From Haliotis rufescens (lineage: Eukaryota): 64,000 bases of DNA. The translations under genes were made by a program, and so were the position numbers. Of the stretch, positions 2,727-63,873 are shown piece by piece; position 1 is the first letter of the stretch, and each line of letters starts with the position of its first letter. The DNA lies in the NCBI RefSeq assembly GCF_023055435.1, contig NW_025963779.1, forward strand, positions 21,638,001 to 21,702,000. The letters run 5' to 3'. A model generated the notes under the pieces. It was not told the DNA's origin. It searched no databases and worked only from the letters and a program-made list of their open reading frames with translations.

Positions 2727-3377
2727 TTGCATTGAAGGGGGACATTCATGTGCATTTGCATGCTGCAATGCATGCATATGCTATCCCAAGATAGGAATGA
2801 TGTGACCAATACAGGCAACTTGCAAATTCACAACACGATAAAGAAATACCTGTCCATTTTGTTTGCAGCGTTTATTATTATGTCAAGGTAATTCATGTAA
2901 GCTTTACAGGGATGTTTGTTCGTGGATACACTTCACAAAGTGGGATGGCTTTGACTGCGCTTGGAACTTATCTAAGCTATCACGCGAGTCTGCTTAATGT
3001 GGACAAATATATATACAAACAAAGACTTCAGACGTAAACCAGAGTGATTTAGGCCTTGAGGATGGGTACTGTGGCGACGGCAAAGGTCACACAATCTGGG
3101 GAATCTGGGACCCACGTCAATAACATGGAGCAGATGATGGCACAGTCATCACTGCTAGGTGCGCCTCCTTTGACCATGAGAAACATGACGACCCCCATCC
3201 TCCGCCACACACGCACGTCGGCACGCACGCACACATAAACACGGGAGACCCCATACATTGGACACCTGTCTTGACTTGAGGGACTATGTATCCATCGAGC
3301 AAACTCGGCTAAGAGATGTTTAATGCATTCTGTCCATAAGAGAAATTAATAGCCAAAGGATTCTATGTTTCATACAA

Positions 3378-4850
3378 ATGTGTATGACGGAGTACTTGTG
3401 TATGACTGAGTACCTGTGTATGACTGAGTACCTGTGTATGACGGAGTACCTGTGTATGACGGAGTACTTGTTTATGACTGATTACCCGTGTATGGCTGAG
3501 TACCTGTGTATGAAGCAGTACCTGTGTATGACTCGGTACTTGTATATGACTGATTACCCGTGTATGACTGATTACCCGTGTATGACTGAGTACCTGTGTA
3601 AGACGGAGTACCTGTGTATGACTGAGTACCTGTGTATGACTGAGTACCTGTGTATGACGGAGTACCTGTGTATGACTGAGTTCCTGTGTATGACTGATTA
3701 CCTGTGTATGACGGAGTACCTGTGTATGACGGAGTACCTGTGTATGACTGATTACCCGTGTATGACGGAGTACCTGTGTATGACGGAGTACCTGTGTATG
3801 ACTGAGTACCTGTGTATGACTGAGTACCTGTGTATGACTGAGTACTTGTGTATGACTCAGTACCTGTGTATGACTCAGTACTTGTATATGACTCAGTACC
3901 TGTGTATGACTGAGTACCTGTGTAAGACGGAGTACCTGTGTATGACTGAGTACCTGTGTATGACGGAGATCCTTTGTATGACGGAGTACCTGTGTTTGAC
4001 TGAGTACCCGTGTATGACTGAGTACCTGAGTATGACTGAGTACCTGTGTATGACTGAGTACCTGTGTATGACTGAGTAGTTGTGTATGACTCAGTACCTG
4101 TGTATGACTCAGTACTTGTATATGACTGATTACCCGTGTATGACTGAGTACCTGTGTAAGACGGAGTACCTGTGTATGACTGAGTACCTGTGTATGACTG
4201 AGTACTTGTGTATGACGGAGTACCTGTGTATGACTGATTACCCGTGTATGACGGAGTACCTGTGTATGACTGAGTACCTGTGTATGACTCAGTACCTGTG
4301 TATGACTGAGTACCTGTGTATGACTGAGTACTTGTGTATGACTCAGTACCTGTGTATGACTGAGTACCTGTGTATGACTGAGTACCTGTGTATGACTGAG
4401 TACTTGTGTATGACTCAGTACCTGTGTATGACTCAGTACTTGTATATGACTGATTACCTGTGTATTACTGAGTACCTGTGTAAGACGGAGTACCTGTGTA
4501 TGACCGAGTACCTGTGTATGACGGAGATCCTTTGTATGACGGAGTACCTGTGTTTGACTGAGTACCCGTGTATGACTCAGTACCTGTGTATGACTGAGTA
4601 CCTGTGTATGACTGAGTACTTGTGTATGACTCAGTACCTGTGTATGACTCAGTACTTGTATATGACTGATTACCCGTGTATGACTGAGTACCTGTGTAAG
4701 ACGGAGTACCTGTGTATGACTGATTACCTGTGTATGACGGAGATCCTTTGTATGACGGAGATCCTTTGTATGACGGAGTACCTGTGTATGACTGATTACC
4801 CGTGTATGACGGAGTACCTGTGTATACTGAGTACCCGTGTATGCCAGTAC
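3378..4850. repeat. Minisatellite, 18-bp unit TGTATGACTGAGTACCTG, about 80 copies
   Basis: Direct tandem repeat; source of the CMTEYL ORFs. Confidence 0.98.
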
Positions 4851-5549
4851 ATGTAGGTAATCACCAGCCCACTGTTGACAACATAGTGCACTTAATCACA
4901 AGTTCTGCACAAGTTCTACTTGAGTTACACACACGTTATACACCGTTGACGACAAACATGAGGTTGCATCCCTGGCATATGGATTCGGATACTTCGATCA
5001 AAAGTTTCATTTAATCTAAAGCGAAAATACCTGTGGTAATAAATCATGAATAACTGAAAAGTGGTGATACTGATTGACCATATGAACTATATGTCTGTAC
5101 AGATTCATTAATCGTCTTTGTGTACAAGACAAGACAAATCACACAACAGTGATATAGAAAGTCACACATACAATCGTCTTTCCCATTCTCAGACTCTCAA
5201 ACTACCTCCGTGTTGCACCCTTGCGTAAAGAACACAGCATTAATATTGTTTGGAAGATTTTGTATTTTTAATGTTTAACTAAGCCTGCGGGGGTCCGACA
5301 TCAGCTCAGTTTATATACAAACCCACTTTTAATCTTCAAAGAACACGGGATGAAGTTGTTTTTATGAGCTAATAAAAAAGTTTACAACACGAAAATAAGA
5401 TCATGAACGAGTATAACTTTGGTCTTTGAGAACAATTACAACGTGCCTGAAGGATGTGATGAACTACTGTTTTGAAGAACATGACTCACGCACAAGAGAG
5501 GAAGATGTTACAGGCGCGGTGAGATATCGCCTTCAGGATTATTGCACTA

Positions 5550-8925: not shown

Positions 8926-9392
8926 GACCCGTGAAGATGCGGGCTAGAATTGGTCTCCAGGAACCCATGCTTGTCGTAAGAGGCGACTAATGGGATCGGG
9001 TGGTCAGGCTCGCTGACCTGGCTAATGCATGCCATGGTAACCCGTGGATCGATGCTTATGATATCAATCACTGGATTTTCTGGTCCAGACTTGATGATTG
9101 ACATAAAGCCTCCATATAGCTGGAGTACAATAGGTCTTCAGCAACCCATGCTTGTCGTAAGAGGCGACTAACGGGATCGGGTGGTCAGGCTCGCTGACTT
9201 GGTTGATGCATGTTATCGTATCCCAATTGGGTGGATCGATGCTCATGATGTCAATCACTAGATTGTCTGGTGTAGACACGACTTGTTTACAGACCGCCGT
9301 CAAATAGCTGGAAAATTGCTTAGTGCGGAGTTAAACACAAAAACAACAACAAACAATCACATAGCTGGAATATTGTGACAAAACAAACAAAA
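8926..9392 (+). mobile_element. SINE-like family B, tandem dimer
   Basis: Two consecutive B bodies (about 8926-9124 and 9127-9357) flanked by one CTTTCGAAAA duplication. Confidence 0.85.
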
Positions 9393-13459: not shown

Positions 13460-13637
13460 TGAGTGAGTGAGTGAGTGAGTGAGTTTGGTTTTACGCCGCT
13501 TATAGCAATATTCCAGCAATATCACGGCGGGGGACACCAGAAATGGGCTTCACACATTGTACCCATGTCGGCATTCGAAGCCGGGTCTTCGGCGTGACGA
13601 GCGAACGCTTTAAGCGCTAGGCTACACGACCGCCCCC
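13460..13637 (-). mobile_element. SINE family A (tRNA-Asp-like head)
   Basis: Reverse complement of the copy at 38448-38612. Confidence 0.92.
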
Positions 13638-13863: not shown

Positions 13864-13981
13864 GGTTGTTTGTTTGTTTGGCCATCCGATCCCGTTAGTC
13901 GCCTCGTACGACAAGCACAGTCGCCTTTTACAGCAAGCATGGGTTACTGAAGACCCATTCTTCCCCGGATCTTCACGGGTT
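13864..13981 (-). mobile_element. Family B, head plus tail with the body deleted
   Basis: CCGATCCCGTTAGTCGCC...GGATCTTCACGGGT preceded by (TTTG)n. Confidence 0.8.
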
Positions 13982-14607: not shown

Positions 14608-14846
14608 GACCCATGAAGGTCCGGGGTAGAATACGTCTTCAGCAACCCATGCTTGCCGGAAAAGATGACTGATAGGATCGAGTGGTCAGGCTCACTGCCT
14701 TGGTTGATGCATGTCATCGATCACAATAGCGTGGATCGATGCTCATGGCATTAATCACTGGGTTGTCTGGTCCAGACTCGATTATTTACAGACCGCCGTC
14801 ATATAGCTGGAATATTGGTGAGGGTGGCGTTAAGCAACAAAAAAAC
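14608..14846 (+). mobile_element. Family B, diverged copy with a single head module
   Basis: GACCCATGAAGGTCCGGGGTAGAATA...GGCGTTAAGCAAC. Confidence 0.85.
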
Positions 14847-26651: not shown

Positions 26652-27072
26652 TTATCATGGATAGCAAAAGATGAAATAGAATATCGCGAGACATTTCTAA
26701 AATATCTGATTTAAATCGTCAAAATACCTGAGTTAAATAAGTCATTATATCTAAATACGGCATGCCAAATACCATCCAAAAACCATCATTATGCCTGTAA
26801 AGCTACCGTAAATATATATTCCATAAATGTGGTCACGTCGACCTTAAGTTTGGTTATTACAGTGTGATTGCGTCTCTAGTACATACTGTGCGTGTAAGCG
26901 ATCTTTCGTAAACGCCGCCGGGAGGAAAGCACGACTACGCAGACAGGGATTGATTACCACGTGAGTGTAACCCAGAAACATGAGTATGGTGACGACAGAC
27001 TCCCTGGTATAATCGAGGTGTAACCACGACCTTTGGGTACCGCCACGGCAAAGAAACATTCACTCATGCCAA

Positions 27073-29365
27073 ATCTTACTACTCTACACAACCCTAATCT
27101 TACTCCTCTACACAACCCTTATCTTACTCCTCTACACAACCCTTATCTTACTCCTCTACACAACCCTTATCTTACTCCTCTACACAACCCTTATCTTACT
27201 CCTCTACATAACCCATATCTTACTCCTCTACACAACCCTTATCTTACTCCTCTACACAGCCCTTATCATACTCCTCTACACAACCCTTATCTTACTCCTC
27301 TACATAACCCATATCTTACTCCTCTACACAACTCTTATCTTACTCCTCTACACAACTCTTATCTTACTACTCTACACAACCCTTATCTTACTCCTCTACA
27401 CAACCCTTATCTTACTCCTCTACACAACCCTTATCTTACTCCTCTACACAACCCTTATCTTACTCCTCTACACAACCCTTATCTTACTCCTCTACACAAC
27501 CCTTATCTTACTCCTCTACACAACTCTTATCTTACTCCTCTACACAACCCTTATCTTACTCCTCTACATAACCCATATCTTACTCCTCTACACAACTCTT
27601 ATCTTACTCCTCTACACAACTCTTATCTTACTCCTCTACACAACCCGTATCTTACTCCTCTACACAACCCTTATCTTACTCCTCTACACAACTCTTATGT
27701 CACTCCTCCACACAACCCTTATGTTACTCCTCTACACAACCCTTATCTTACTCCTCTACACAGCCCTTACACAACCCTATCTTACTCCTCTACACAACCC
27801 TCATCATACTCCTCTACACAACCCTTATCTTACTCCTCTACACAGCCCTTATCTTACTTATCCACACAACCCTTATCTTACTCCTCTACACAGCCCTTAT
27901 CTTACTCCTCTACACAGCCCTTATCCTACTCATCTACACAACCCTTATCTTACTCCTCTACACAGCCCTTATCTTACTTATCCACACAGCCCTTATCTTA
28001 CTCCTCTACACAGCCCTTATCTTACTCCTCTACACAACCCTTATCTTACTACTCTACAAAACCCTCATCATACTCCTCTACACAACTCTTAACTTACTCC
28101 TCTACACAACCCTTATCTTACTCCTCTACACAACTCGTATCTTACTCCTCTAAACAAACCTTATCTTACTCCTCTACACAACCCTTATCTTACTACTCTA
28201 CACAACCCTCATCATACTCCTCTACACAACCCTTATCTTACTCCTCTACACAACCCTTATCTTACTCCTCTACACAACCCTTATCTTACTCCTCTACACA
28301 ACCCTTATCTTACTCCTCTACACAACCCTTTTCTTACTCCTCTACACAACTCTTATCTTACTCCTCTACACAACCCTTATCTTACTCCTCTACACAACCC
28401 TTATCTTACTCCTCTACACAGCCCTTATCTTACTCCTCTACACAACCCTTATCTTACTCCTCTACACAGCCCTTATCTTACTCCTTCACACAGCCCTTAT
28501 CTTACTACACTACACAGCCCTTATCTTACTCCTCTACACAGCCCTTATCTTACTCCTCTACACAGCCCTTATCTTACTCCTCTACACAACCCTTATCTTA
28601 CTCCTCTACACAACTCTTATCTTACTCACACACACAAGCCTTATCTTATTCCTCCACACAACTCTTATCTTACTCATACACACAAGCCTTAACTTACTCC
28701 TCTACACAGCCCTTTTCTTACTACTCTACACAGCCCTTATCTTACTCCTCTACACAACCCTTATCTTACTCCTCTACACAGCCCTTATCTTACTACTCTA
28801 CACAACCCTTATCTTACTCCTCTACACAACCCGTATCTTACTCCTCTACACAACCCTTATCTTACTCCTCTACACAACTCTTATCTTACTCACCTACACA
28901 ACCCTTATCTTACTGATCTACACTACTCTTATCTTACTCATCCACACAACCCTTATCTTACTCCTCTACACAACCCGTATCTTACTCCTCTACAGAACCC
29001 TTATCTTACTCCTCCACACAACCCTTATCTTACTCCTCTACACAACCCTTATCTTACTCATCCACAGAACCCTCATATTACTCATCCACACAACCCTCAT
29101 ATTACTCACCCACACAACCCTTATCTTACTCACCCACACAACCCTCATATTACTCACCAACACAACCCTCAACTTACTCATCCACACAATCCCCATATTA
29201 CTCACCCACACAAACCTCATATTACTCACCCACACAACTCTCATATTACTCACCCACACAACCCTCATATTACTCATCCACACAACCCTCATATTACTAA
29301 TCCACACAACCCTCATATTACTCACCTACACAACCGTCATATTTCTCATCCACAAAACTCTCATC
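27073..29365. repeat. Minisatellite, 24-bp unit TCTTACTCCTCTACACAACCCTTA, about 95 copies
   Basis: Direct tandem repeat with a nearly G-free strand; source of the 627-aa ORF. Confidence 0.98.
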
Positions 29366-30553
29366 CAGTTTGCAGCAGCTGAAGCTGTGTAGAGATGAAG
29401 CTCCACTCCCACCTGGCTACACGCCACACACGCCACACACCGGAGAAAAAGCTGTGCTTTTACATTCTGCGTCAATAGTGGTTTGTTATATCATGTTAGA
29501 TGCTAGTATTACAGGGACATCAGCGAGCAGGGAATTGACGGTGAAACACCAAGGACCATAATCGAGACGAAGTATCAGTGCATCCTGGCACGGGAAAGTG
29601 GCGCAACTCTGAACACAGAGCATCGGAACCTGAGACGACTTGACCACCATTGTGCCTTCTGCCTTACACGCTGATCACATCAATGCAAACCATATTAAAA
29701 TAATTTGAAGTGGTACAAACATTTTAAATAGCTCTAGCACAATAAATACTCTTAAAGAAAAACATTTGGTATATGAAGATCTACATTTGACGAAGGGGCA
29801 AACAGTACACCTTCGTCGATATACGACGGCATACAAATGGCATCCAACAGGTTACACTAAACTCAAGACAGAAAATATATATAGCATTTGAAGCGAGTAT
29901 GGTGGCGTCGGGTGGGGTTGGAGGTCCGGATTGGGGTCGGGTGGGGGTGCAGGGAGGCGCTGCTAGGGAGGGGTGAACGCTTTGAGGGGTCGGGCATGCT
30001 CAAACTATGACATAAATCAGTGAAGCAACAGGTCTGTATTTCTAATTTGCACTGAACCCGCAATTGACGAGTTCACAAAAATTGACTGGAATATGATAAT
30101 GAGGTCCGAATATGAAGCAATTGAAAGTATATTCTGCTATAAAGACGTGCTGCTCCACCATCTAGGTAATAGTAGCGTATACCTCCTCACTGGTGGGCCA
30201 ACACGGGCATCTGTACCCACGGCTCCGAGTAGAGTCACCCTACAATGAAATGGTGACAAATATGATTATTTCAGTTTCTGAAGGACGGTGTCTCCAACAA
30301 CATGGTGTGTAGCTCACGGCACAATCTACCCCTCACGACAACACGGCAACGGCAACGGCAATGCTGTGTGATCGTGTTATTGTAATATGTGGTACTGCTG
30401 CTAACATCATCAATATTTCGCTTTCGGCAATGGCTTACGTGTCACCCACTCGCTGTTTTTCGAGGTTATTCGGAAACTCTGCTTATCTGGAGATGCCTGG
30501 ACTGAACCTCAGTTACTTACTATCTCTGTGCGGGACATCGTTCCTTGTTTCCT

Positions 30554-31117: not shown

Positions 31118-31360
31118 GACCCGTGAAGATCCGGGGTAGAATAGGTCTTCAGCAAACCATGCTTGCCGTAAAAGGCGACTTTACTTGTCGTAAGAGGCGA
31201 CTAACGGGGTCGGGTGGTAGGGCTCGCTGACTTGGTTGAAGCATGTCATCGATCCCAATTGCGTTGATCGATGCTCATGACATCAATCACTGGATATCTG
31301 GTCCAGACTCGATTTTTTACAGACCGCCGTCCTTTAGCTGGAAAACAACAAATCAACCAA
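31118..31360 (+). mobile_element. Family B, intact 5' end
   Basis: Starts GACCCGTGAAGATCC; TSD TCCTTCTACATGT. Confidence 0.92.
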
Positions 31361-31431
31361 TCCTTCTACATGTCTTCTGCTATATATTTCTCTCAGTGTC
31401 TTGACCACAAATTTCAACTTCTGCGACTACA

Positions 31432-31768
31432 GACCGACTCCGTGGTCTAGTGGTAGAGCATCCGCCCGAAAAGCGGAAGGTCCGGGGTTCGATTCCCGGC
31501 CGCGTCATCTCAAAAGACGTTAAAAGATGGTTCTTGTTGTTACCCTGTCTGGCGCTCGGCATAAGGCACTAACACAAGGACTGGTCGCCTCATAGTCAGT
31601 ATACTGTGTCTGAGTGGGGTATATATGTTAAACTGCGGCATGGTATCTCAGTGAGCTAGAACTATAAAGTCCGGACTACTACAAACACCCACACCCACAC
31701 GTGCATGCACGTCGCTATATGAGTGCAATAATCTCTGACGCGACGTCAAACCAAATTTCACCTCACCT
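31432..31768 (+). mobile_element. SINE family D (tRNA head; central domain tentatively Meta/MESC-like)
   Basis: A box TGGTCTAGTGG, B box GGTTCGATTCC, GCGTCAT..CAAAAGACGTTAAAAGATGG core, (CACCT)n tail, TSD TGCGACTACA. Confidence 0.92.
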
Positions 31769-37516: not shown

Positions 37517-38321
37517 TGTGTAAGCATGTACAATGAGTTCGGCAGCTGATGGTGTAAGCATGTACTGTGAGATCAGCAGCTGATGGTGTGAGCATGTACT
37601 GTGAGATCAGCAGCTGATGGTGTAAGCATGTACTATTAAAAACAGCAGCTGATGGTGTAAGCATGTACTATGAGATTAGCAGCTGATGGTGTAAACATGT
37701 ACTATGAGATCAGCAGCTGATGGTGTAAGCATGTACTATGAGATCGGCAGCTGATGGTGTAAGCATGTACTATGAGATCGGCAGCTGGTGGTGTAAGCAT
37801 GTACAAGGAGATCAGCAGCTGATGGTGTGAGCATGCACAAGGAAATCGGCAGCTGATGGTGTGAACATGTACAAGGAGATCGACAGCTGATGGTGTAAGC
37901 ATGTTCAAGGAGATCGACAGCTGATGGTGTAAGCATGTACTATGAGATCGGCAGCTGATGGTGTGAGCATGTACTATGAGATCGACAGCTGGTGGCGTGA
38001 GCATGTACAAGGAGATCAGCAGCTGATGGTGTAAGCATGTACAAGGAGATCGCCAGCTGATGGTGTAAGCATGTACAAGGAGATCGGCAGCTGGTGGTGT
38101 AAGCATGTACAAGGAGATCGTCATCTGATTATGGCAGCATGTACTATGAGATCGACATATGATGGTGTACGCATGTACAAGGAGATCGGCAACTGATGGT
38201 GTGAGCATGTACAGGGAGATCGGGAGCTGATGGTGTGAGCATGTACTATGAGATCGACATCTGATGGTGTGAGCATGTACATGGAGATCGGCAGCTGATG
38301 GTGTGAGCATGTACTATGAGA
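37517..38321. repeat. Minisatellite, 34-bp unit, about 24 copies
   Basis: GGTGTAAGCATGTACTATGAGATCGGCAGCTGAT. Confidence 0.97.
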
Positions 38322-38447: not shown

Positions 38448-38612
38448 GGGGCGGTCGGGTAGCCTAGTGGTTAAAGTGTTCGCTCGTCACGCCGAAGACC
38501 CGGGTTCGATTCCCGACATGGGTACAATGTGTGAAGCCCATTTCTGGTGTCCCCCGCCGTGATATTGCTGGAATATTGCTAAAAGCGGCGTAAAACCATA
38601 CTCACTCACTCA
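38448..38612 (+). mobile_element. SINE family A, full length, young
   Basis: A box TAGCCTAGTGG, GTC anticodon-like loop, B box GGTTCGATTCC, (CACT)n tail, TSD CTGATAATCAG. Confidence 0.95.
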
Positions 38613-42420: not shown

Positions 42421-42693
42421 GACCCGTGAAGATCCGGGGTAGAATAGGTCTTCAGCAACCCATGCTTGCCGTAAAAGGCGACTATGCTTGTCGTAAAAGG
42501 CGACTAACGGGATCGGGTGGTCAGGCTCGCTGACTTGGTTGATGCATGTCATCCATCCAAAATACGTGGATCGATGCTCATGATATTAATCACTGGATTG
42601 TCTTGTCCAAACTCGATTATTTACAGACCGCCGTCATATAGCTGGAATATTGTTGAGTGCGGCGTTAAACCACAAACCAACCAACCAACAACA
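42421..42693 (+). mobile_element. Family B, full length
   Basis: TSD ACATCCTACCAAG(G); (CAAC)n tail. Confidence 0.95.
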
Positions 42694-42951: not shown

Positions 42952-43119
42952 GGGGCGGTCGGGTAGCCTAGTGGTTAAAGCGCTCGCTCGTTACACCGAA
43001 GACCCGGGTTCGATTCCCGACATGGGTACAATGTGTGAAGCCCATTTCTGGTGTCCCCCGCCGTGATATTGCTGGAATATTACTAAAAGCGGCGTAAAAC
43101 CATACTCACTCACTCACTG
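42952..43119 (+). mobile_element. SINE family A, full length
   Basis: Near-identical to the 38448 copy; TSD ACAGGAGA(GG). Confidence 0.95.
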
Positions 43120-44062: not shown

Positions 44063-44312
44063 GTTTGTTTGTTTTTTGTAACACTCAGCAATAATCCAGC
44101 TATATGACGGCGGTCTGTAAATAATCATGTCTGGACCAGTGATTGACATCATGAGCATCGATCCACGCAATTGGGTAACGATGACATGCATCAACCAAGT
44201 CAGCAAGCCTGACCACCCGATCCCGTTAGTCGCCTCTTAAGACAAGCGGGGTCGCCTTTTCCAGCAAGCATGGGTTGCTGAAGACCTATTCTACGCCGGA
44301 TCTTCACGGGCC
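44063..44312 (-). mobile_element. Family B
   Basis: Reverse complement of the 42421 copy. Confidence 0.92.
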
Positions 44313-44720: not shown

Positions 44721-46026
44721 TTATTTTCATTAAAATTCTATTCCCACCGTAAATACATTTCTGAAATACAGTTTTCACAGGGAACAACACAATTGTTTTA
44801 GTGTTTCTTAATCAGTTAAACTTATCAACAAAAAAACAATATTACGACCTAATTCAAACTTACCTTATCAATCGTTCACCCGTTCGCGTAAAGCATTTAC
44901 TAGTCGTGTAGCCATCTAAATCCTATATTGTTTCTTTTAATAACAGAAAAATTTCAATTCAGCGATGCTGGGACTACGGCAAACAGGCGATTGATGCGGA
45001 TCAAGATGGCGATCATTCCAAGATCAAACGGATAGAAAAAACATAGATGTTGCAGCGAGAGCACATCGATAAATGTGCGCTTCTTGGATATTAATGTTAG
45101 AATCATCGCTCATGAGGAGGCCACGTGACTTTTTGTCTGTAGAGAATAATTGGGGAAGTCGTGTTTTGTCAATGTGGTGCCTGCGTGGGTGTGTGCGTGC
45201 GTGCGTGCGTGCATCTGTGTTCGTGTGTATGCGCCACACCACTGTCACCGATGAAAACACTAAATTATCCTTCAAAAGATAAAATACCACACGGTTAGCG
45301 TGCACGCATGCGTGCTTGTGTATGCGCGCTTTCAAAATGGAGACACGAGTTCATTTTCACCTCTAAAAAAGTGAATTACATTCCGAAAGAAATAAGGACA
45401 GACACGAATTATCTGTTAAAACTGGGCTGTGATATGCCATAACTATTATTCATTTTCTTCAAATCCATAGAAGACATATGGAATTACTTAGTTTCATGGC
45501 AGTATTCTTGGCAACAATACCATTTCTCCTACATGCGGTATCGATCGTGGAATTGCAAGCCCAAACTGATAATTCTCTTTGGACACTAAAAGCCATCATT
45601 GAAATCACTGACACTGCATTTTTTCAAAAATCGATAAAACTTTACGACGATGCAAGAGTCGGAATACCAGTCCATTCATAACTCCCACTGATTGCTGTAT
45701 TACCATGAATGGCACGAAATGCTGACTGTCTTCTTCATTCATTCAGGCAAACAACGTGACTGTCTACAACAATCAATAGGACGGAGCGTCTTCATTCAAG
45801 CCACTGACAAATAGCAAGTAGGTTCAGGACAGCATGGACGTGAATATTGGAAACCCCCACGGAATAGAAACCCTAATTTGATAACGCTGCTCATTGCTTG
45901 CTTAACAACACTGGTGACAGGATTAACCTCGCCTCGGAAGCGACATGGCTTCTACATCATCACGGCGGTGACGATGGTGTCATACTTGCTCCAGTATTGG
46001 CGACCAGTTTCTGTCACTATTAAACA

Positions 46027-46297
46027 GACCCGTGAAGATCCGGGGTAGAATAGGTCTTCAGCAACCCATGCTTGCCGTAAGAGGTGACTATGCTTGTCGT
46101 AAAAGGCGACTAACGAGATCGGGTGGTCAGGCTCGCTGACTTGGTTGATGCATGTCATCGATCCAAAATACGTGGATCGATGCTCATGATATTAATCACT
46201 GGATTGTCTGGTCCAGACTCGATTATTTACAGACCGCCGTCATATAGCTGGAATATTGCCGAGTGCGGCGTTAAATAACAAACGAACCAACCAACCA
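46027..46297 (+). mobile_element. Family B, full length
   Basis: Starts GACCCGT; TSD TATTAAACA. Confidence 0.95.
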
Positions 46298-46395
46298 ATA
46301 TTAAACATGACAAGCATGTCACTGAGGGACACTTTCCTCGTGTCAGGAACCCAGCATCGAAGCAGGGTTTTACCAGGCGCACTGTTAGAGTCACA

Positions 46396-48208: not shown

Positions 48209-48452
48209 ATTTGTTTGTTTTGTTTGTTGTTTAACGCCGCACTCAGCAATATTCCAGCTATATGACGATGGTCTGTAAATAATCGAGTCTGGACCAGACA
48301 ATCCAGTGATTGACATCATGAGCATCGATCTACGCAATTGATGATGGTATGCATTAAACAAGTCAGCAAGCATGACCACCCGATCCCTTTAGTCGCCTTT
48401 TACGGCAAGCGTGGACTGATTGAGACCTATTCTACCCCGGATCTTCAGGGAT
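48209..48452 (-). mobile_element. Family B, diverged
   Basis: Reverse complement of B with a single head module. Confidence 0.88.
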
Positions 48453-48519
48453 CATAAGGACATGAACGTAGATGCCCTCATCGACAACACGCATGGATCT
48501 GATCATGTTCTCAAGCATT

Positions 48520-57763: not shown

Positions 57764-58036
57764 TTGATTGATTGATTGATTTGTTGCTTAACGCCGCACT
57801 CAGCAATATTCCAGCTATATGACGGCGGTCTGTAAATAATCAAATCTGGACCAGACAATCCAGTGATTAATATCATGAGCATCGATCCACGCAAATGGGA
57901 TCGATGACATGCATCAACCAAGTCAGCGAGCCTGACCACCCGACCCCGTTAGTCGCCTTTTACGACAAGCATAGTCGCTTTATACAGCAAGCATGGATTG
58001 CTGAAGACCTATTCTACCCCGGCTCCTTACGGGGTC
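57764..58036 (-). mobile_element. Family B, full length, (CAAT)n tail
   Basis: Reverse complement of the 42421 copy. Confidence 0.92.
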
Positions 58037-58742: not shown

Positions 58743-58904
58743 CTGACTGAGTATGGTTTTACGCCGCTTTTAGGAATATTCCAGAAATATCACGGCAGGG
58801 GACACCAGAAATGGGCTTCACCCAATGTACACATGCCGAGAATCAAACCCGGGTCTTCGGCATTACGAGCGAACGCTTTAACCACCTGGCTACCCGACCG
58901 CCCC
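58743..58904 (-). mobile_element. SINE family A
   Basis: TSD TTACTTGTGAAGA. Confidence 0.92.
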
Positions 58905-59180
58905 TTACTTGTGAAGAGAAATATTTTAACCCGTGTGAGTAGAAAAAAAGCAAAGTCGGTAAAATGTGTTATTTTTTACTTTTTACCGGTTAACAAAATC
59001 ACAACTGTTAACGTGGTTGCAGTTCTTGTAATATGTGATTCCTGACATGTCACGGGTGTTTGGCAATGACACCATCACCTACCACTACGACTGCGTTGCC
59101 TTAAGGCATCCCAGGTGTTTCCGGGTGAGAAATGTCCCGAAAAACCCATACTTGCCGAACAAAGGAACTAACTGAATCGG

Positions 59181-59352
59181 GGGGCGGTCGGGTAGCCGAG
59201 TGGTTAAAGCGTTCGCTCGTCACGCCGAAGACCCGGGTTCGATTCCCGACATGGGTACAATGTGTGAAGCCCATTTCTGGTGTCCCCCGCCGTGATATTG
59301 CTGGTAAATCGCTAAAAGCGGCGTAAAACCATACTCACTCACTCACTCACTC
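59181..59352 (+). mobile_element. SINE family A inserted into an older family B copy (about 59115-59540)
   Basis: TSD ACTAACTGAATCGG; the flanks join into a degenerate B sequence. Confidence 0.92.
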
Positions 59353-59823
59353 ACTAACTGAATCGGTGCACAGGCTCGGTGACTTGGTTGATTGTATGTC
59401 ATCGTAGCCCGGAGCAACGTGACGTTGTTCATGATATCAATCACTGGTTTGTGTGGTCCTCGTATGATTATTTACAGGCCGCCGTGATATAGCTAAAATA
59501 TCGCCGAGTGCGGCGTTAAACAAAAAAACAAAGAAATAAACCTTAAGTAAGAAGGATATGGGATGTATAAGCTATAACGATGCATTTGCTTACCACTTAT
59601 TACTAAGCTGTCTCATCGTTTGATGAGAAATGAAAATGTTCAATTCACTGCAACACTCGTTCTAATCAGTCCGCCCCTCGTGGGAGGATCGACCACAGAC
59701 AATCAGCGTGGTAAGACGTCCGTAACCACTGAACTAAAACATACCCTTTATCGGAAACTACCTATAAAGACCACGTATGTTGCCACATACAGATAATGCA
59801 CTGGTATTCCAACGAACATAATC

Positions 59824-60497: not shown

Positions 60498-60701
60498 TTG
60501 TTGTTCGTTTGTTGTTTAACGCCGCACTCAGCAATATTCCAGCTTTATGACGGTGGTCTGTAAATAATCAAGTCTGGTCAAGACAATTCAGTGATTGACA
60601 TCATGAGCATCGATCCACTCAATTGGGATACGATGCATCAACCAAGTCAGCGAGCCTGACCACCCGATCCCGTTAGTCGCCTCTTACGACAAGCATAGTC
60701 G
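60498..60701 (-). mobile_element. Family B, 5'-truncated
   Basis: Ends inside the duplicated head module. Confidence 0.9.
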
Positions 60702-62869
60702 ATACCGGTATTCCTCAGTGAGTTCCTTAGTCATAATACCGGCTCTGTCATTGTAGGGGATGAGCTACGTATACTTAAACGATGTGGACTGAAATTTCAA
60801 CACTATGTAACTGTACCTGGTAACTATGTAAGCAAGGATCTCTTGGAGAGCATGGGAGACAAACTATGCCTAACAACAATCAAAGCCATAAAGTTTGACT
60901 TCACAAAAAACATTTAAGACGCAGGAAAGAGTTAATTGGTTTCATATGAAGAATGGGGTTGATCATCTTCATATGATAGACTAACTTATATGTTGTGAAT
61001 TACATGATGTTTTAACGTCAAATGAGATCAAAGTGAAATTTGTCAAATATTAATCATGTCATGATGTGAAAAAATCTCAAACACGAATATAAATTGAATA
61101 AAACTGAATGTTTTCAAGAGCGTTGACAACCGTTTAACGACGGCAAGAAGAATTTCACTCACTAAATGAAGTAAAAGAAAACATATCGTTTTATGATCCT
61201 GTACAACAACACGCGTTGGAGGTTGGAGTACATAAGACGATGGTCCCTTCCTCCAGCCAGGCTTATCCCTGTTGGTGTTATGATTCCTTCTAACAACAAA
61301 GCAGTGTGGGTCTACCTTCATAACACGGAAGTACTGACGCACCAACTGTTTTTTTTCAGGTCACGAGGAACTAGAACCGACATACGAGGGACGACCTCAG
61401 CTTATAATGTTACCTCAGTACAAAAGCATGAACGTTGTTCTACCATTTAGAACATATCCACTTTGCATATACAATCTGTCAAAAGTATATGCCTACTTTT
61501 GATATTCTTGACAGCTAAACAATCGGGTTCTTCTCAGGGCATCATTTCCAAAATGAGAATTTCATTTTGTAAACAAAACAAACGGTGTTGTCCCCCTGTC
61601 AAGGTGATTTGACGCTTGGGTGCAAAAAGATAGAATTTTACTTACCATTATTGTACATATCCTAGATAGGTCCACAAGTTAGTAAATGCTTCAGACCCTG
61701 GTACAATCGGTAGTAAACAAGTGTTTAGGTGCCCTCTTCCCAACATCCAATCGCTACCTTATTTTTAGAGACGAGCAACCATTTGATCCTCTAGAAGTTC
61801 AGGCGCTCTGACGTAAATTGACGGAACAGTCTATTAACCGGCTAGGGGTGACGCATCACGCTCGGCTTCTAACGTTAATGTAGGCTTGTGTTTTGAAAAA
61901 AGAAAAGATGACGTAGGTTCTCTAGATGTTAAGCCCAATGTGTGAAGTCATTCATCTGCAACAGAGCCAGTGAAGAAACTTCACACTTGTTATCAGATAC
62001 AGTACCGAGTCCCCTACAATATTTATCGACTAGCTCATCTTTCCAGCGAACGATCAACTCAAAATTTCTCTTGGCTATTTATTACGAGCAGCGCGCCTAG
62101 CAACATGTTTTGGTATACCTCGAGGAAAACCTGTATCCAGTCTAACAGTTGATCCCCGCAGTCGGTAGAGACTTCTCACGGAGTCATGCCTTCAAACGAA
62201 ATACACTTTGATACGGCTCGACCAAAATGGGATTCCAGCGCTCCATGACCAGGGCTGATGACTTGGATTCCTGCGCCCTGACCAGGGACGTGTCTTATGC
62301 TGGTTTCTCTGTGTGGATGTTAATTGAATCTGGCTAAACAAATTTGTATTGATCTTCCCCAGTGCTGTTATCGTCAGGTTTTTTCTCAAGTTGTGGACGG
62401 CAAGGTTTGAAAATAACAGCCTAGTGTGAAATTAGGAACATTTAAACGGATCAGTGTTAGTTGAATTTACATTAAGTAGTGCACTTTAATTCGCTCTGAT
62501 AGGTATTTTTCCATTAGCTTATCTTCAGCAGATTGCGTATACAGTCCCCTTGCTATAAAGCTTAATATGTGAATGAGTGGTAACGCCCTCGTCTGTAATG
62601 GTTATATTTCAGCGCATCAAGTTCCCGATAATCTTGTTAATGATCAAATGACCGATTCGATTATTTTGTCTTCGATTCGACATGCATTAGTCAGACGCAT
62701 GCGTAATGAAGAGTTTTTTGTTGAGTGAATGTACTTTGACGCCCCCACAAGCAACAATAATACAATTATACTTATAAGTTATAAGGGCCGCCCGATGTTT
62801 TCACGTTGATAAGGACAATCTGTACTGGCAGCTGATACAAGTGACCTATGTACATCCTTGTCAACCGAG

Positions 62870-63094
62870 GCTTGCAGTGCAAGGCGACTATGCTTGTCGT
62901 AAGAGGCGACTAACGGGATCGGGTGGTCAGGCTCGCCGACTTGTTTGATGCATGTCATCGTATCCCATTTGCGTTGATCGATGCTCATGATGTCAATCAC
63001 TGGATTGTCTGGTCCAGACTCTTTTATTTACAGACCACCGTTATATAACTGGAATATTGCTGAGTGCGGCGTTAAACAACAAACAAACAAAACA
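62870..63094 (+). mobile_element. Family B, 5'-degenerate
   Basis: GGCGACTATGCTTGTCGTAAGAGGCGACTAACGGG...(CAAA)n. Confidence 0.9.
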
Positions 63095-63873
63095 ACCCTA
63101 TCATATATACATGTATGTCACAGTCGACGAGGTGACCAGGTTGTGTCACTATATACAGGTAACCAGGTGACCCATTGCCGTAATTATGTGTCTGGTACAG
63201 GTGTCAAACAAGTTGTTTTCCCCGGCATCTGATCTTGCTGCTCCCTGACGGGATATTGTCGTGCTGGAATATCCACTGGCCCGCGATGGCTCTACTGGGT
63301 ATAGTTGACACTTCTCAATTACATGATAAATAAGGATAATGTACCTCCGATGTATTCTGCGAGTGAAGATAGTTTTCCAAAGAAATTATGAATCCGTTCA
63401 ATCCATCACCTCTATCATCGTCTCACTATCAGAAGCCCTCCCGCTACACCAATGACATTTATGCAGTGCAAAGAAGTGTAACTATCATCACTCAAGATGG
63501 CAGACTTAAAACAGTTAACAGACCATGGAGTGACGCCCTACATCTACACTGTAGGTAATATCATCATACCAGGACGTGTCTCATTTCAAAGCATAGTTAA
63601 GCCAAAGTTACATGCAATCGCCTTGTCATTCTGTAATGAAACTTTAAGCAAAGCGCGTCCAATCCATTGGTCTGTCTTAAAGACCCTGATACAAATATAT
63701 CAAATACAGCCCATGCAAGTCTATAATGTTTGGCAAGTCTAGATTACTGCTGTAAAGAAGGGAGTCTCTGGGCTTCTTTTTATCATATTATTAAGATAAT
63801 TAAACAACTGTTTTTTTTGTACGATATGTTCATTTCAGAGACTAGATGTTAATCTACCGATCCATGTATAACA

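Follow-up and report, generated by a model that had tools for sequence, protein, structure and literature searches.

A predicted pseudoknotted RNA module at the 5′ ends of abalone retroelements and in RNA viruses, and its possible role as an exonuclease roadblock

Family B and its 5′ ends

A stretch of 64,000 nucleotides from the abalone Haliotis rufescens (assembly GCF_023055435.1, contig NW_025963779.1, positions 21,638,001 to 21,702,000; hereafter the window) carries many copies of a short interspersed element (SINE), family B, whose structured 5′ head is the subject of this report. The focal copy lies on the forward strand between two target-site duplications (TSDs) reading TATTAAACA (46018–46026 and 46299–46307). 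It consists of the head (46027–46121; covariance-model match of 62.3 bits), here in a two-hairpin form that is predicted to fold as a tandem double pseudoknot, a SINE body with no match in Rfam (46122–46233), and a 3′ tail resembling that of long interspersed elements (LINEs) and ending in an (ACAA/ACCA)n repeat (46234–46298). This tail is common to the tRNA-headed SINE family A and to LINEs that encode apurinic endonuclease, reverse transcriptase and RNase H (APE-RT-RNaseH), and it aligns with the tail of LINE L387/L388 over 36 nt at 88.9% identity (E 1e-6). The family is real: where a sequence-only reading of the window had counted about 14 copies, 16 fragments are found with E<1e-14, and the covariance model detects 12 family-B heads at E≤1e-4. 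Across the 1.33-Gb genome the first 48 nt of the head occur in 2,784 exact copies and a 35-nt part of it in 7,139, against zero for the reversed control.

That reading placed the element start at GACCCGT, directly after the TSD, in the copies at 31118, 42421 and 46027. This is borne out, as the copy at 31118 follows a 13-nt TSD whose last base is 31117, and at 42421 the TSD shares a single base with the first base of the element (G1). A sample anchored on the tail, which avoids selecting on the head, was taken from the window and 40 neighbouring 10-kb pieces (464 kb), copies near the ends of pieces being dropped. Here 36 of 66 copies start at nt 1–4, and 8 of the 10 full-length copies with a detectable TSD have zero bases before G1, the other two having 3 and 5 extra bases. 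The remaining 30 copies are 5′-truncated at points scattered over nt 7–146. From 30 loci selected by their heads, 11 of 14 likewise have zero bases before G1. The claim that family B has no recognisable Pol III A and B boxes also stands, none being present within one mismatch in three copies, with both positive controls detected.

Family B is very likely the published abalone LP-SINE (Hdi_LP/Hmi_LP). Matetovici 2016 (PMC4758252) reports LP-SINEs from Haliotis and further molluscs; their opening 70 bases match those at the 5′ ends of Nimb-17_LMi, I-3_DR and RTE-9_CPB, and the supplement gives a length of 255 bp for Hdi_LP. Family B resembles them in being a TSD-flanked element of about 255 bp with variable TSDs, a LINE-derived 5′ head of about 70 bp, a 3′ tandem repeat and a LINE-like tail. 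Moreover, the motif of the family-B head recurs in Fig. S2 of that paper, in a scallop block labelled "Nimb-17 homology"; a 10-mer from the head had no match in the supplement text, in which the Hdi_LP consensus itself is given as a figure. The SINE family and the sharing of its head with LINEs are already published, and the LP head was put forward there as a presumed promoter. In the parts of PMC4758252 covered, neither a structure for the head nor its occurrence in viruses nor a ribozyme upstream of it is described. No print description of the structure, of its occurrence in viruses or of a ribozyme-plus-fold arrangement was found in literature other than Repbase, Dfam, most subscription journals, figures and bioRxiv supplements; within this scope a 15-nt core of the head matched none of the searchable main texts, and PMC4758252 was the only paper found on the fold and the only match for a ribozyme on Nimb retrotransposons.

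The predicted fold

Comparison of homologues predicts that the head forms two tandem pseudoknots, each with an A-rich crossing strand, and that a 4-bp hairpin is inserted in the second. In the focal copy, the first pseudoknot lies at the element 5′ end and comprises Pa (46029–46032 with 46041–46044) and Pb (46034–46040 with 46053–46059), with a conserved AGAATA at 46047–46052 in the loop. The second comprises Pc (46060–46063 with 46069–46072) and Pd, whose 5′ strand (46065–46067) falls inside the Pc loop and whose 3′ strand, with a TAA linker, occupies 46111–46117 and has one G>A mismatch in this copy. Copy comparison places a first, degenerate hairpin copy at 46074–46088, from a 22-nt tandem duplication, and copies and homologues together define the conserved hairpin Pe (46096–46110), with 4 bp and a 7-nt loop, which we take to resemble a T-loop. 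One or two GTCG/CGAC hairpins had been described from the sequence; among 44 two-hairpin copies the second is intact in 35, but the first is mostly degenerate and retains GTCG/CGAC in 3. The focal copy reads ACGAGATC where the earlier description gave ACGGGATC. Some copies carry a tandem duplication of the first 46–48 nt of the head (L003; joints 42468->42423).

Pairings were assessed with a swap test, in which pairing of a strand with its own partner is compared with pairing to the corresponding strand of another family, over 28 chosen representatives (22 retroelement, 6 viral); the families are related, and the counts out of 2000 swaps are not to be read as probabilities. Swapped strands paired as well in 0 cases for Pb, 0 for Pd and 27 for Pa, and the counts for Pd and Pa point to one pseudoknot or more in the head. 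When the alignment was not fitted to the model, Pc was 89% paired with two-sided changes at three of its four pairs, and Pa was 86% paired with none; once the alignment was fitted to the model, two-sided change appears at 11 of the 15 nested pairs, and in Pb at 7 of 7. Pe shows zero covariation and is invariant, and LINE heads found through protein search likewise keep it, with loop position 3 free. The sequence-only reading had recognised a structured RNA, and covariation among homologues, LINE 5′ untranslated regions (UTRs) included, agrees with this for Pb, Pc and Pd and weakly for Pa. However, two of its four pairings find no support in homologues: the closing stem GACCCGT/ACGGG(A)TC (689/2000 swaps; 42.9% paired in the unfitted alignment, a register-dependent figure) and the GGGT/ACCC pseudoknot (248/2000). 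The multi-way (four-way) junction that it drew is rejected on the swap test and the pairing fraction of the closing stem. The nested single-strand folding energy of the head is unremarkable (z -0.6 to -1.2). In the metagenome SINE families L122, L191 and L204, low-complexity insertions of 60–124 nt lie within the first pseudoknot loop.

The suspicion that the head fits no canonical HDV-like or hammerhead core, and may be an uncharacterised motif, was well founded. Rfam contains no match to it, in searches with the window at the gathering score, with the copy at 42421 at E≤10, and with five viral and four LINE loci; nor is it a tRNA, 5S or 7SL head. As an HDV-like ribozyme the head was rejected, since it lacks P3/L3 and a descriptor (P1-P2-P3/L3-P1.1-P4, catalytic C in J4/2) had 0 matches in four heads on both strands; hammerhead and twister core motifs, searched without a positive control, also had no match.

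LINE partners and viral homologues

A search of the genome with the first open reading frame (ORF1) of LINE L312 gave 126 scored matches, and the fold lies upstream, in sense orientation, at 23 of the 25 ORF1 loci that were fetched. This bears out the earlier proposal of a 5′ module captured from a LINE, as does the publication of the head as the LP head. Twelve longer stretches contain 6-kb elements with two ORFs, TSDs of 11–13 nt and (ACTC)n ends, in which ORF2 encodes APE-RT-RNase H, one of two ORF1 products examined has a zinc knuckle, and ORF1 begins about 550–650 nt past the head. A further conserved block about 200 nt past the head in the 5′ UTRs of L361, L358 and L312 is a candidate translation element. 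No LINE with exactly the SINE-B head was found.

Two types of LINE carry the fold differently. LINE-alpha starts on the first base of the fold, as confirmed by TSDs in 4/4 copies, with random flanking sequence, and its first base is T in 25 of 28 copies; the three exceptions all represent a single derived and duplicated copy. LINE-beta instead has a 58-nt module directly upstream of the fold, which fits an HDV descriptor and has a weak match to Rfam RF02682, at 27.5 bits and E 0.12, short of the gathering score. The APE-RT-RNaseH (I/Nimb-type) LINE L389 has such a module at its 5′ end (312-369, +), a compact HDV-like ribozyme whose P4 is minimal. The TSD of LINE-beta ends at the ribozyme G1 in 5/7 copies, and GG is found there in 29/29 distinct copies. 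The genome holds 877 LINE-beta head matches and 817 exact matches to the ribozyme core; conversely, ribozyme loci carry the fold by a strict pattern in 28/30 cases and a variant of it in the other 2. Junctions unlike the ribozyme end occur in 11 of the 877, and the module is kept in 11/11 of these, in one of them cut. None of the 877 was found to begin at the fold, by a test that is blind to flanks resembling the ribozyme end (about three in ten). A TATA box lies upstream of LINE-beta in 2/29 copies, giving no sign of promoter targeting. In an ORF1 tree of 21 rows, LINE-alpha is nested among ribozyme-bearing lineages (support 94/93 and 91/91, unstarred, with a long outgroup branch), which suggests that the LINE-alpha lineage lost its ribozyme.

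The LINE-beta copies L377, L363 and L387 are inserted inside ORF2 of other LINEs, and copies are clustered in the genome. In three small-RNA runs, 35 reads fell on the SINE and 127 on the 5′ end of LINE-beta, and every one of the 127 was antisense. In run X22, 104 antisense reads of 31 nt with identical starts and a 5′ U cover the fold at L389:375-405 (-); they resemble Piwi-interacting RNAs and may be copies of one molecule.

The fold is not confined to retroelements. A 19-nt motif retrieved five viral contigs, all with the upstream stem and AGAATA and all with the motif just past the last ORF, and the fold is present in five distinct RNA virus records. There it lies in the 3′ UTR, close to where the contig ends and 4–99 nt past the final stop codon, once in tandem; two records, L032 and L034, are near-identical and have the same context. 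Pfam identifies Peptidase_A21, nodavirus capsid and RdRP_3 domains for three contigs, while L031 has no Pfam match and looks like an RNA-dependent RNA polymerase by eye alone. Looser patterns gave mostly chance matches, with only L263 and L269 (RdRP_4) as new examples. L263 is a 212-kb DNA virus record in which the fold (1981–2055, +) sits between two co-oriented ORFs, 119 nt past a stop codon and 143 nt before an ATG. Of 151 viral loci, 100 were scanned with a covariance model whose sole input was 25 retroelement heads, same-contig repeats, near-identical loci and L284-L302 (chance matches by eye) being left out. The model returned 7 full matches at 39–66 bits, the next best scoring 19.3 and the seed hairpin alone 16.8. 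In L039 an incomplete tandem second copy scores 24.7 bits. Locus L076, partial-looking, failed the model and was discarded.

In metagenomes at least 121 loci were found, mostly SINE- or LINE-like heads of several families, which we read as animal host DNA. Among ten matches in prokaryote genomes, three have the fold, all in symbiont assemblies and with SINE or LINE anatomy, and these too are read as DNA of the host. Because RNA viruses carry the fold and its base changes are compensatory, the module, judged by sequence comparison, acts at the RNA level. The head is an uncatalogued, uncharacterised structured RNA of about 70 nt that is shared by animal retroelements and RNA viruses.

A possible exonuclease roadblock and its alternatives

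Nearly all SINE heads serve as Pol III promoters, and the 5′ ends of LINEs are set by promoters or ribozymes. The explanation that we prefer for the family-B head, and to which we would give somewhat less than an even chance, is that it is an exonuclease-blocking cap, akin to viral exonuclease-resistant RNAs (xrRNAs), that fixes the element start. Family B would be a non-autonomous retroposon with a LINE-like tail, and its first 70–95 bases a mobile RNA module in which two pseudoknots, predicted to stack, are joined by a hairpin. Lacking, on this account, a promoter of its own, the SINE would be present in read-through host transcripts, which a 5′-to-3′ exonuclease would trim to the first base of the element, where enzymes of the Xrn1/Xrn2 type would stall at the fold. 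The trimmed RNA would then be copied by a LINE, probably one of the APE-RT-RNaseH (I/Nimb-type) kind, which would mobilise the SINE, and viruses would use the fold to make or protect 3′ subgenomic RNA. Such a roadblock would be conditional, setting the 5′ end only when an exonuclease arrives.

Consistent with this scheme, DNA copies of SINE B and LINE-alpha have their 5′ end on the first paired base of the fold. The LINE-alpha/LINE-beta pair provides a natural control: the same fold sets the end in LINE-alpha and not in LINE-beta, so that only a conditional mechanism such as trimming fits. Retention of the upstream ribozyme in LINE-beta likewise argues against cleavage or initiation at the head, either of which would remove it. 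The HDV fold with its 5′-OH has itself been proposed to bar exonuclease (PMC11331408).

Viral xrRNAs occur in 3′ UTRs, often in series, and require a pseudoknot (PMC8374639); those of plant viruses halt Xrn1 at the base of P1, one of them being situated 28 nt within a subgenomic RNA (PMC6299227). The head is similar to the known types (flaviviral classes 1a, 1b and 2 and the Tombusviridae/Luteoviridae class) in its predicted compact, pseudoknotted form and in its viral 3′ UTR position and sometimes tandem arrangement; DNA copies of SINE B and LINE-alpha start at the base of the first helix, as their RNA may do too. It differs from them in its predicted secondary structure, in matching no Rfam family and in occurring at the 5′ ends of cellular retroelements. 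Cellular xrRNAs have been named as still to be found (PMC8374639). If the preferred explanation is true, trimming to a folded roadblock would be a third route to a defined 5′ end and would explain exact ends in a family of thousands of copies. It is possible, and here we are more tentative, that the head represents a new structural class of exonuclease-resistant RNA and the first encoded in cellular genomes, spreading in modular fashion among LINEs, SINEs and unrelated RNA viruses; such retroelements would live with neither promoter nor ribozyme while host decay enzymes size their RNA, and one LINE lineage would have lost its HDV-like ribozyme and now start on the knot.

Several observations weigh against a roadblock. 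The fold is 89–100% identical among six LINE-beta copies, whereas an AT-rich UTR stretch is 54–72% identical in 14 of 15 pairs; an unused roadblock should decay, and conservation of the fold in LINE-beta hence requires a second role or an exchange of modules between subfamilies. That the hairpin is invariant is in part a circular finding, most homologues having been found with it. Pa is nearly invariant and covaries weakly, and three viral examples (L032, L033 and L263) have a poor Pd or none. The loop adjoining the 5′ end ranges from 1 to 124 nt, a poor fit to a fixed ring of 15–16 nt formed from that strand, and the three-way junction of flaviviral xrRNAs is absent.

The chief rival, which we judge rather unlikely though well worth weighing, sees in the fold an element for cap-independent translation or ribosome binding, with a tRNA shape like that of the T-shaped structure (TSS) of turnip crinkle virus (TCV): LINEs would use it to translate uncapped RNA, viruses would use it as a 3′ enhancer, SINEs would sit on ribosomes near nascent LINE protein, and exact ends would be a by-product of trimming back to a stable knot. 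The TSS consists of two coaxially stacked pseudoknots and a hairpin and binds 80S ribosomes (PMC5336357). This 3′ translation enhancer shares with the head, as predicted, the two pseudoknots, the hairpin and the viral 3′ UTR position, and the order of helices looks alike. In the head, however, the third hairpin is much smaller, with a conserved 7-nt loop, and the head has the conserved AGAAUA and also occurs at element 5′ ends. A translation role accounts for a fold kept behind a ribozyme that leaves no cap, and for its place in viral 3′ UTRs. Yet translation does not by itself account for the precise starts of LINE-alpha and SINE B, the SINE encodes nothing, and ORF1 starts far downstream, behind another conserved block that could serve the purpose. 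Exonuclease blocking and a role in translation are compatible rather than exclusive, and whichever function applies, a 70-nt fold common to animal retroelements and RNA viruses has gone uncatalogued.

The sequence-only reading had proposed that the head either self-cleaves or acts as an internal promoter; both are now disfavored by its presence in RNA viruses, which have no DNA stage, and by the HDV-like ribozyme that LINE-beta keeps upstream. A new class of self-cleaving ribozyme, cutting just before G1, appears improbable, although the leader of zero bases, the single-base precision and the conserved unpaired bases would suit it, and some linear RNA viruses do have ribozymes in their UTRs (PMC13725137). 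The head would share with the HDV-like 5′ ribozymes of R2, RTE and L1Tc/ingi the character of a swappable 5′ module giving a promoterless element an exact, stable 5′ end, together with a double-pseudoknot fold and a proposed role as exonuclease shield (PMC13725137, PMC11331408). Unlike them it has no P3/L3/P1.1, and the true HDV-like module of LINE-beta is separate and directly upstream; the HDV descriptor does find that module, whereas the head matches no HDV, hammerhead or twister descriptor on either strand. Cleavage at the head could be masked in LINE-beta, where the junction base lies within P2 of the HDV-like fold, but the upstream module is kept and none of the 877 matches was found to start at the fold. 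In addition, the first base varies (G, T, A), the linker past the hairpin has no invariant C, and cleavage within the 3′ UTR would cut a viral genome in two. The LP-SINE proposal of Matetovici 2016, in which the head is a promoter internal to the DNA element, seems very improbable. It would fit the position at the 5′ end and the addition of the LP head to, or its substitution for, tRNA heads in bivalve SINEs (PMC4758252), and one sequence can serve both as promoter and at the RNA level, an example being the L1Tc/ingi 77-mer that the same paper cites. The compensatory changes and the presence in RNA viruses, however, indicate selection on RNA, and a fixed start at the head would give ribozyme-less LINE-beta copies, none of which was found. 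LINE-alpha also starts with a pyrimidine, which is unusual for Pol II and Pol III.

Other repeats in the window

Besides the focal copy, full-length family-B copies lie at 42421–42693 (+), with a TSD, and at 31118–31361 (+), with its 13-nt TSD and a partly deleted tail. One-hairpin copies are found at 14608–14846 (+) and 48212–48453 (-), and two adjoining ones at 8926–9351 (+). The copy at 13879–13981 (-) consists of the head only, those at 60502–60721 (-) and 62855–63096 (+) are 5′-truncated, and further copies occupy 44063–44312 (-) and 57768–58035 (-).

Family A, which has its 3′ tail in common with family B and the LINEs, has copies at 13484–13613, 38468–38610, 42972–43105, 58751–58884 and 59201–59335, and one family A copy is nested within an old family-B copy at 59123–59534. 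A tRNA-like SINE head at 31436–31507 (+) matches RF00005 at 42.9 bits and is the sole Rfam match in the window at the gathering score. Long minisatellites at 3324–4895, 27013–29389 and 37705–38313 give rise to spurious open frames.
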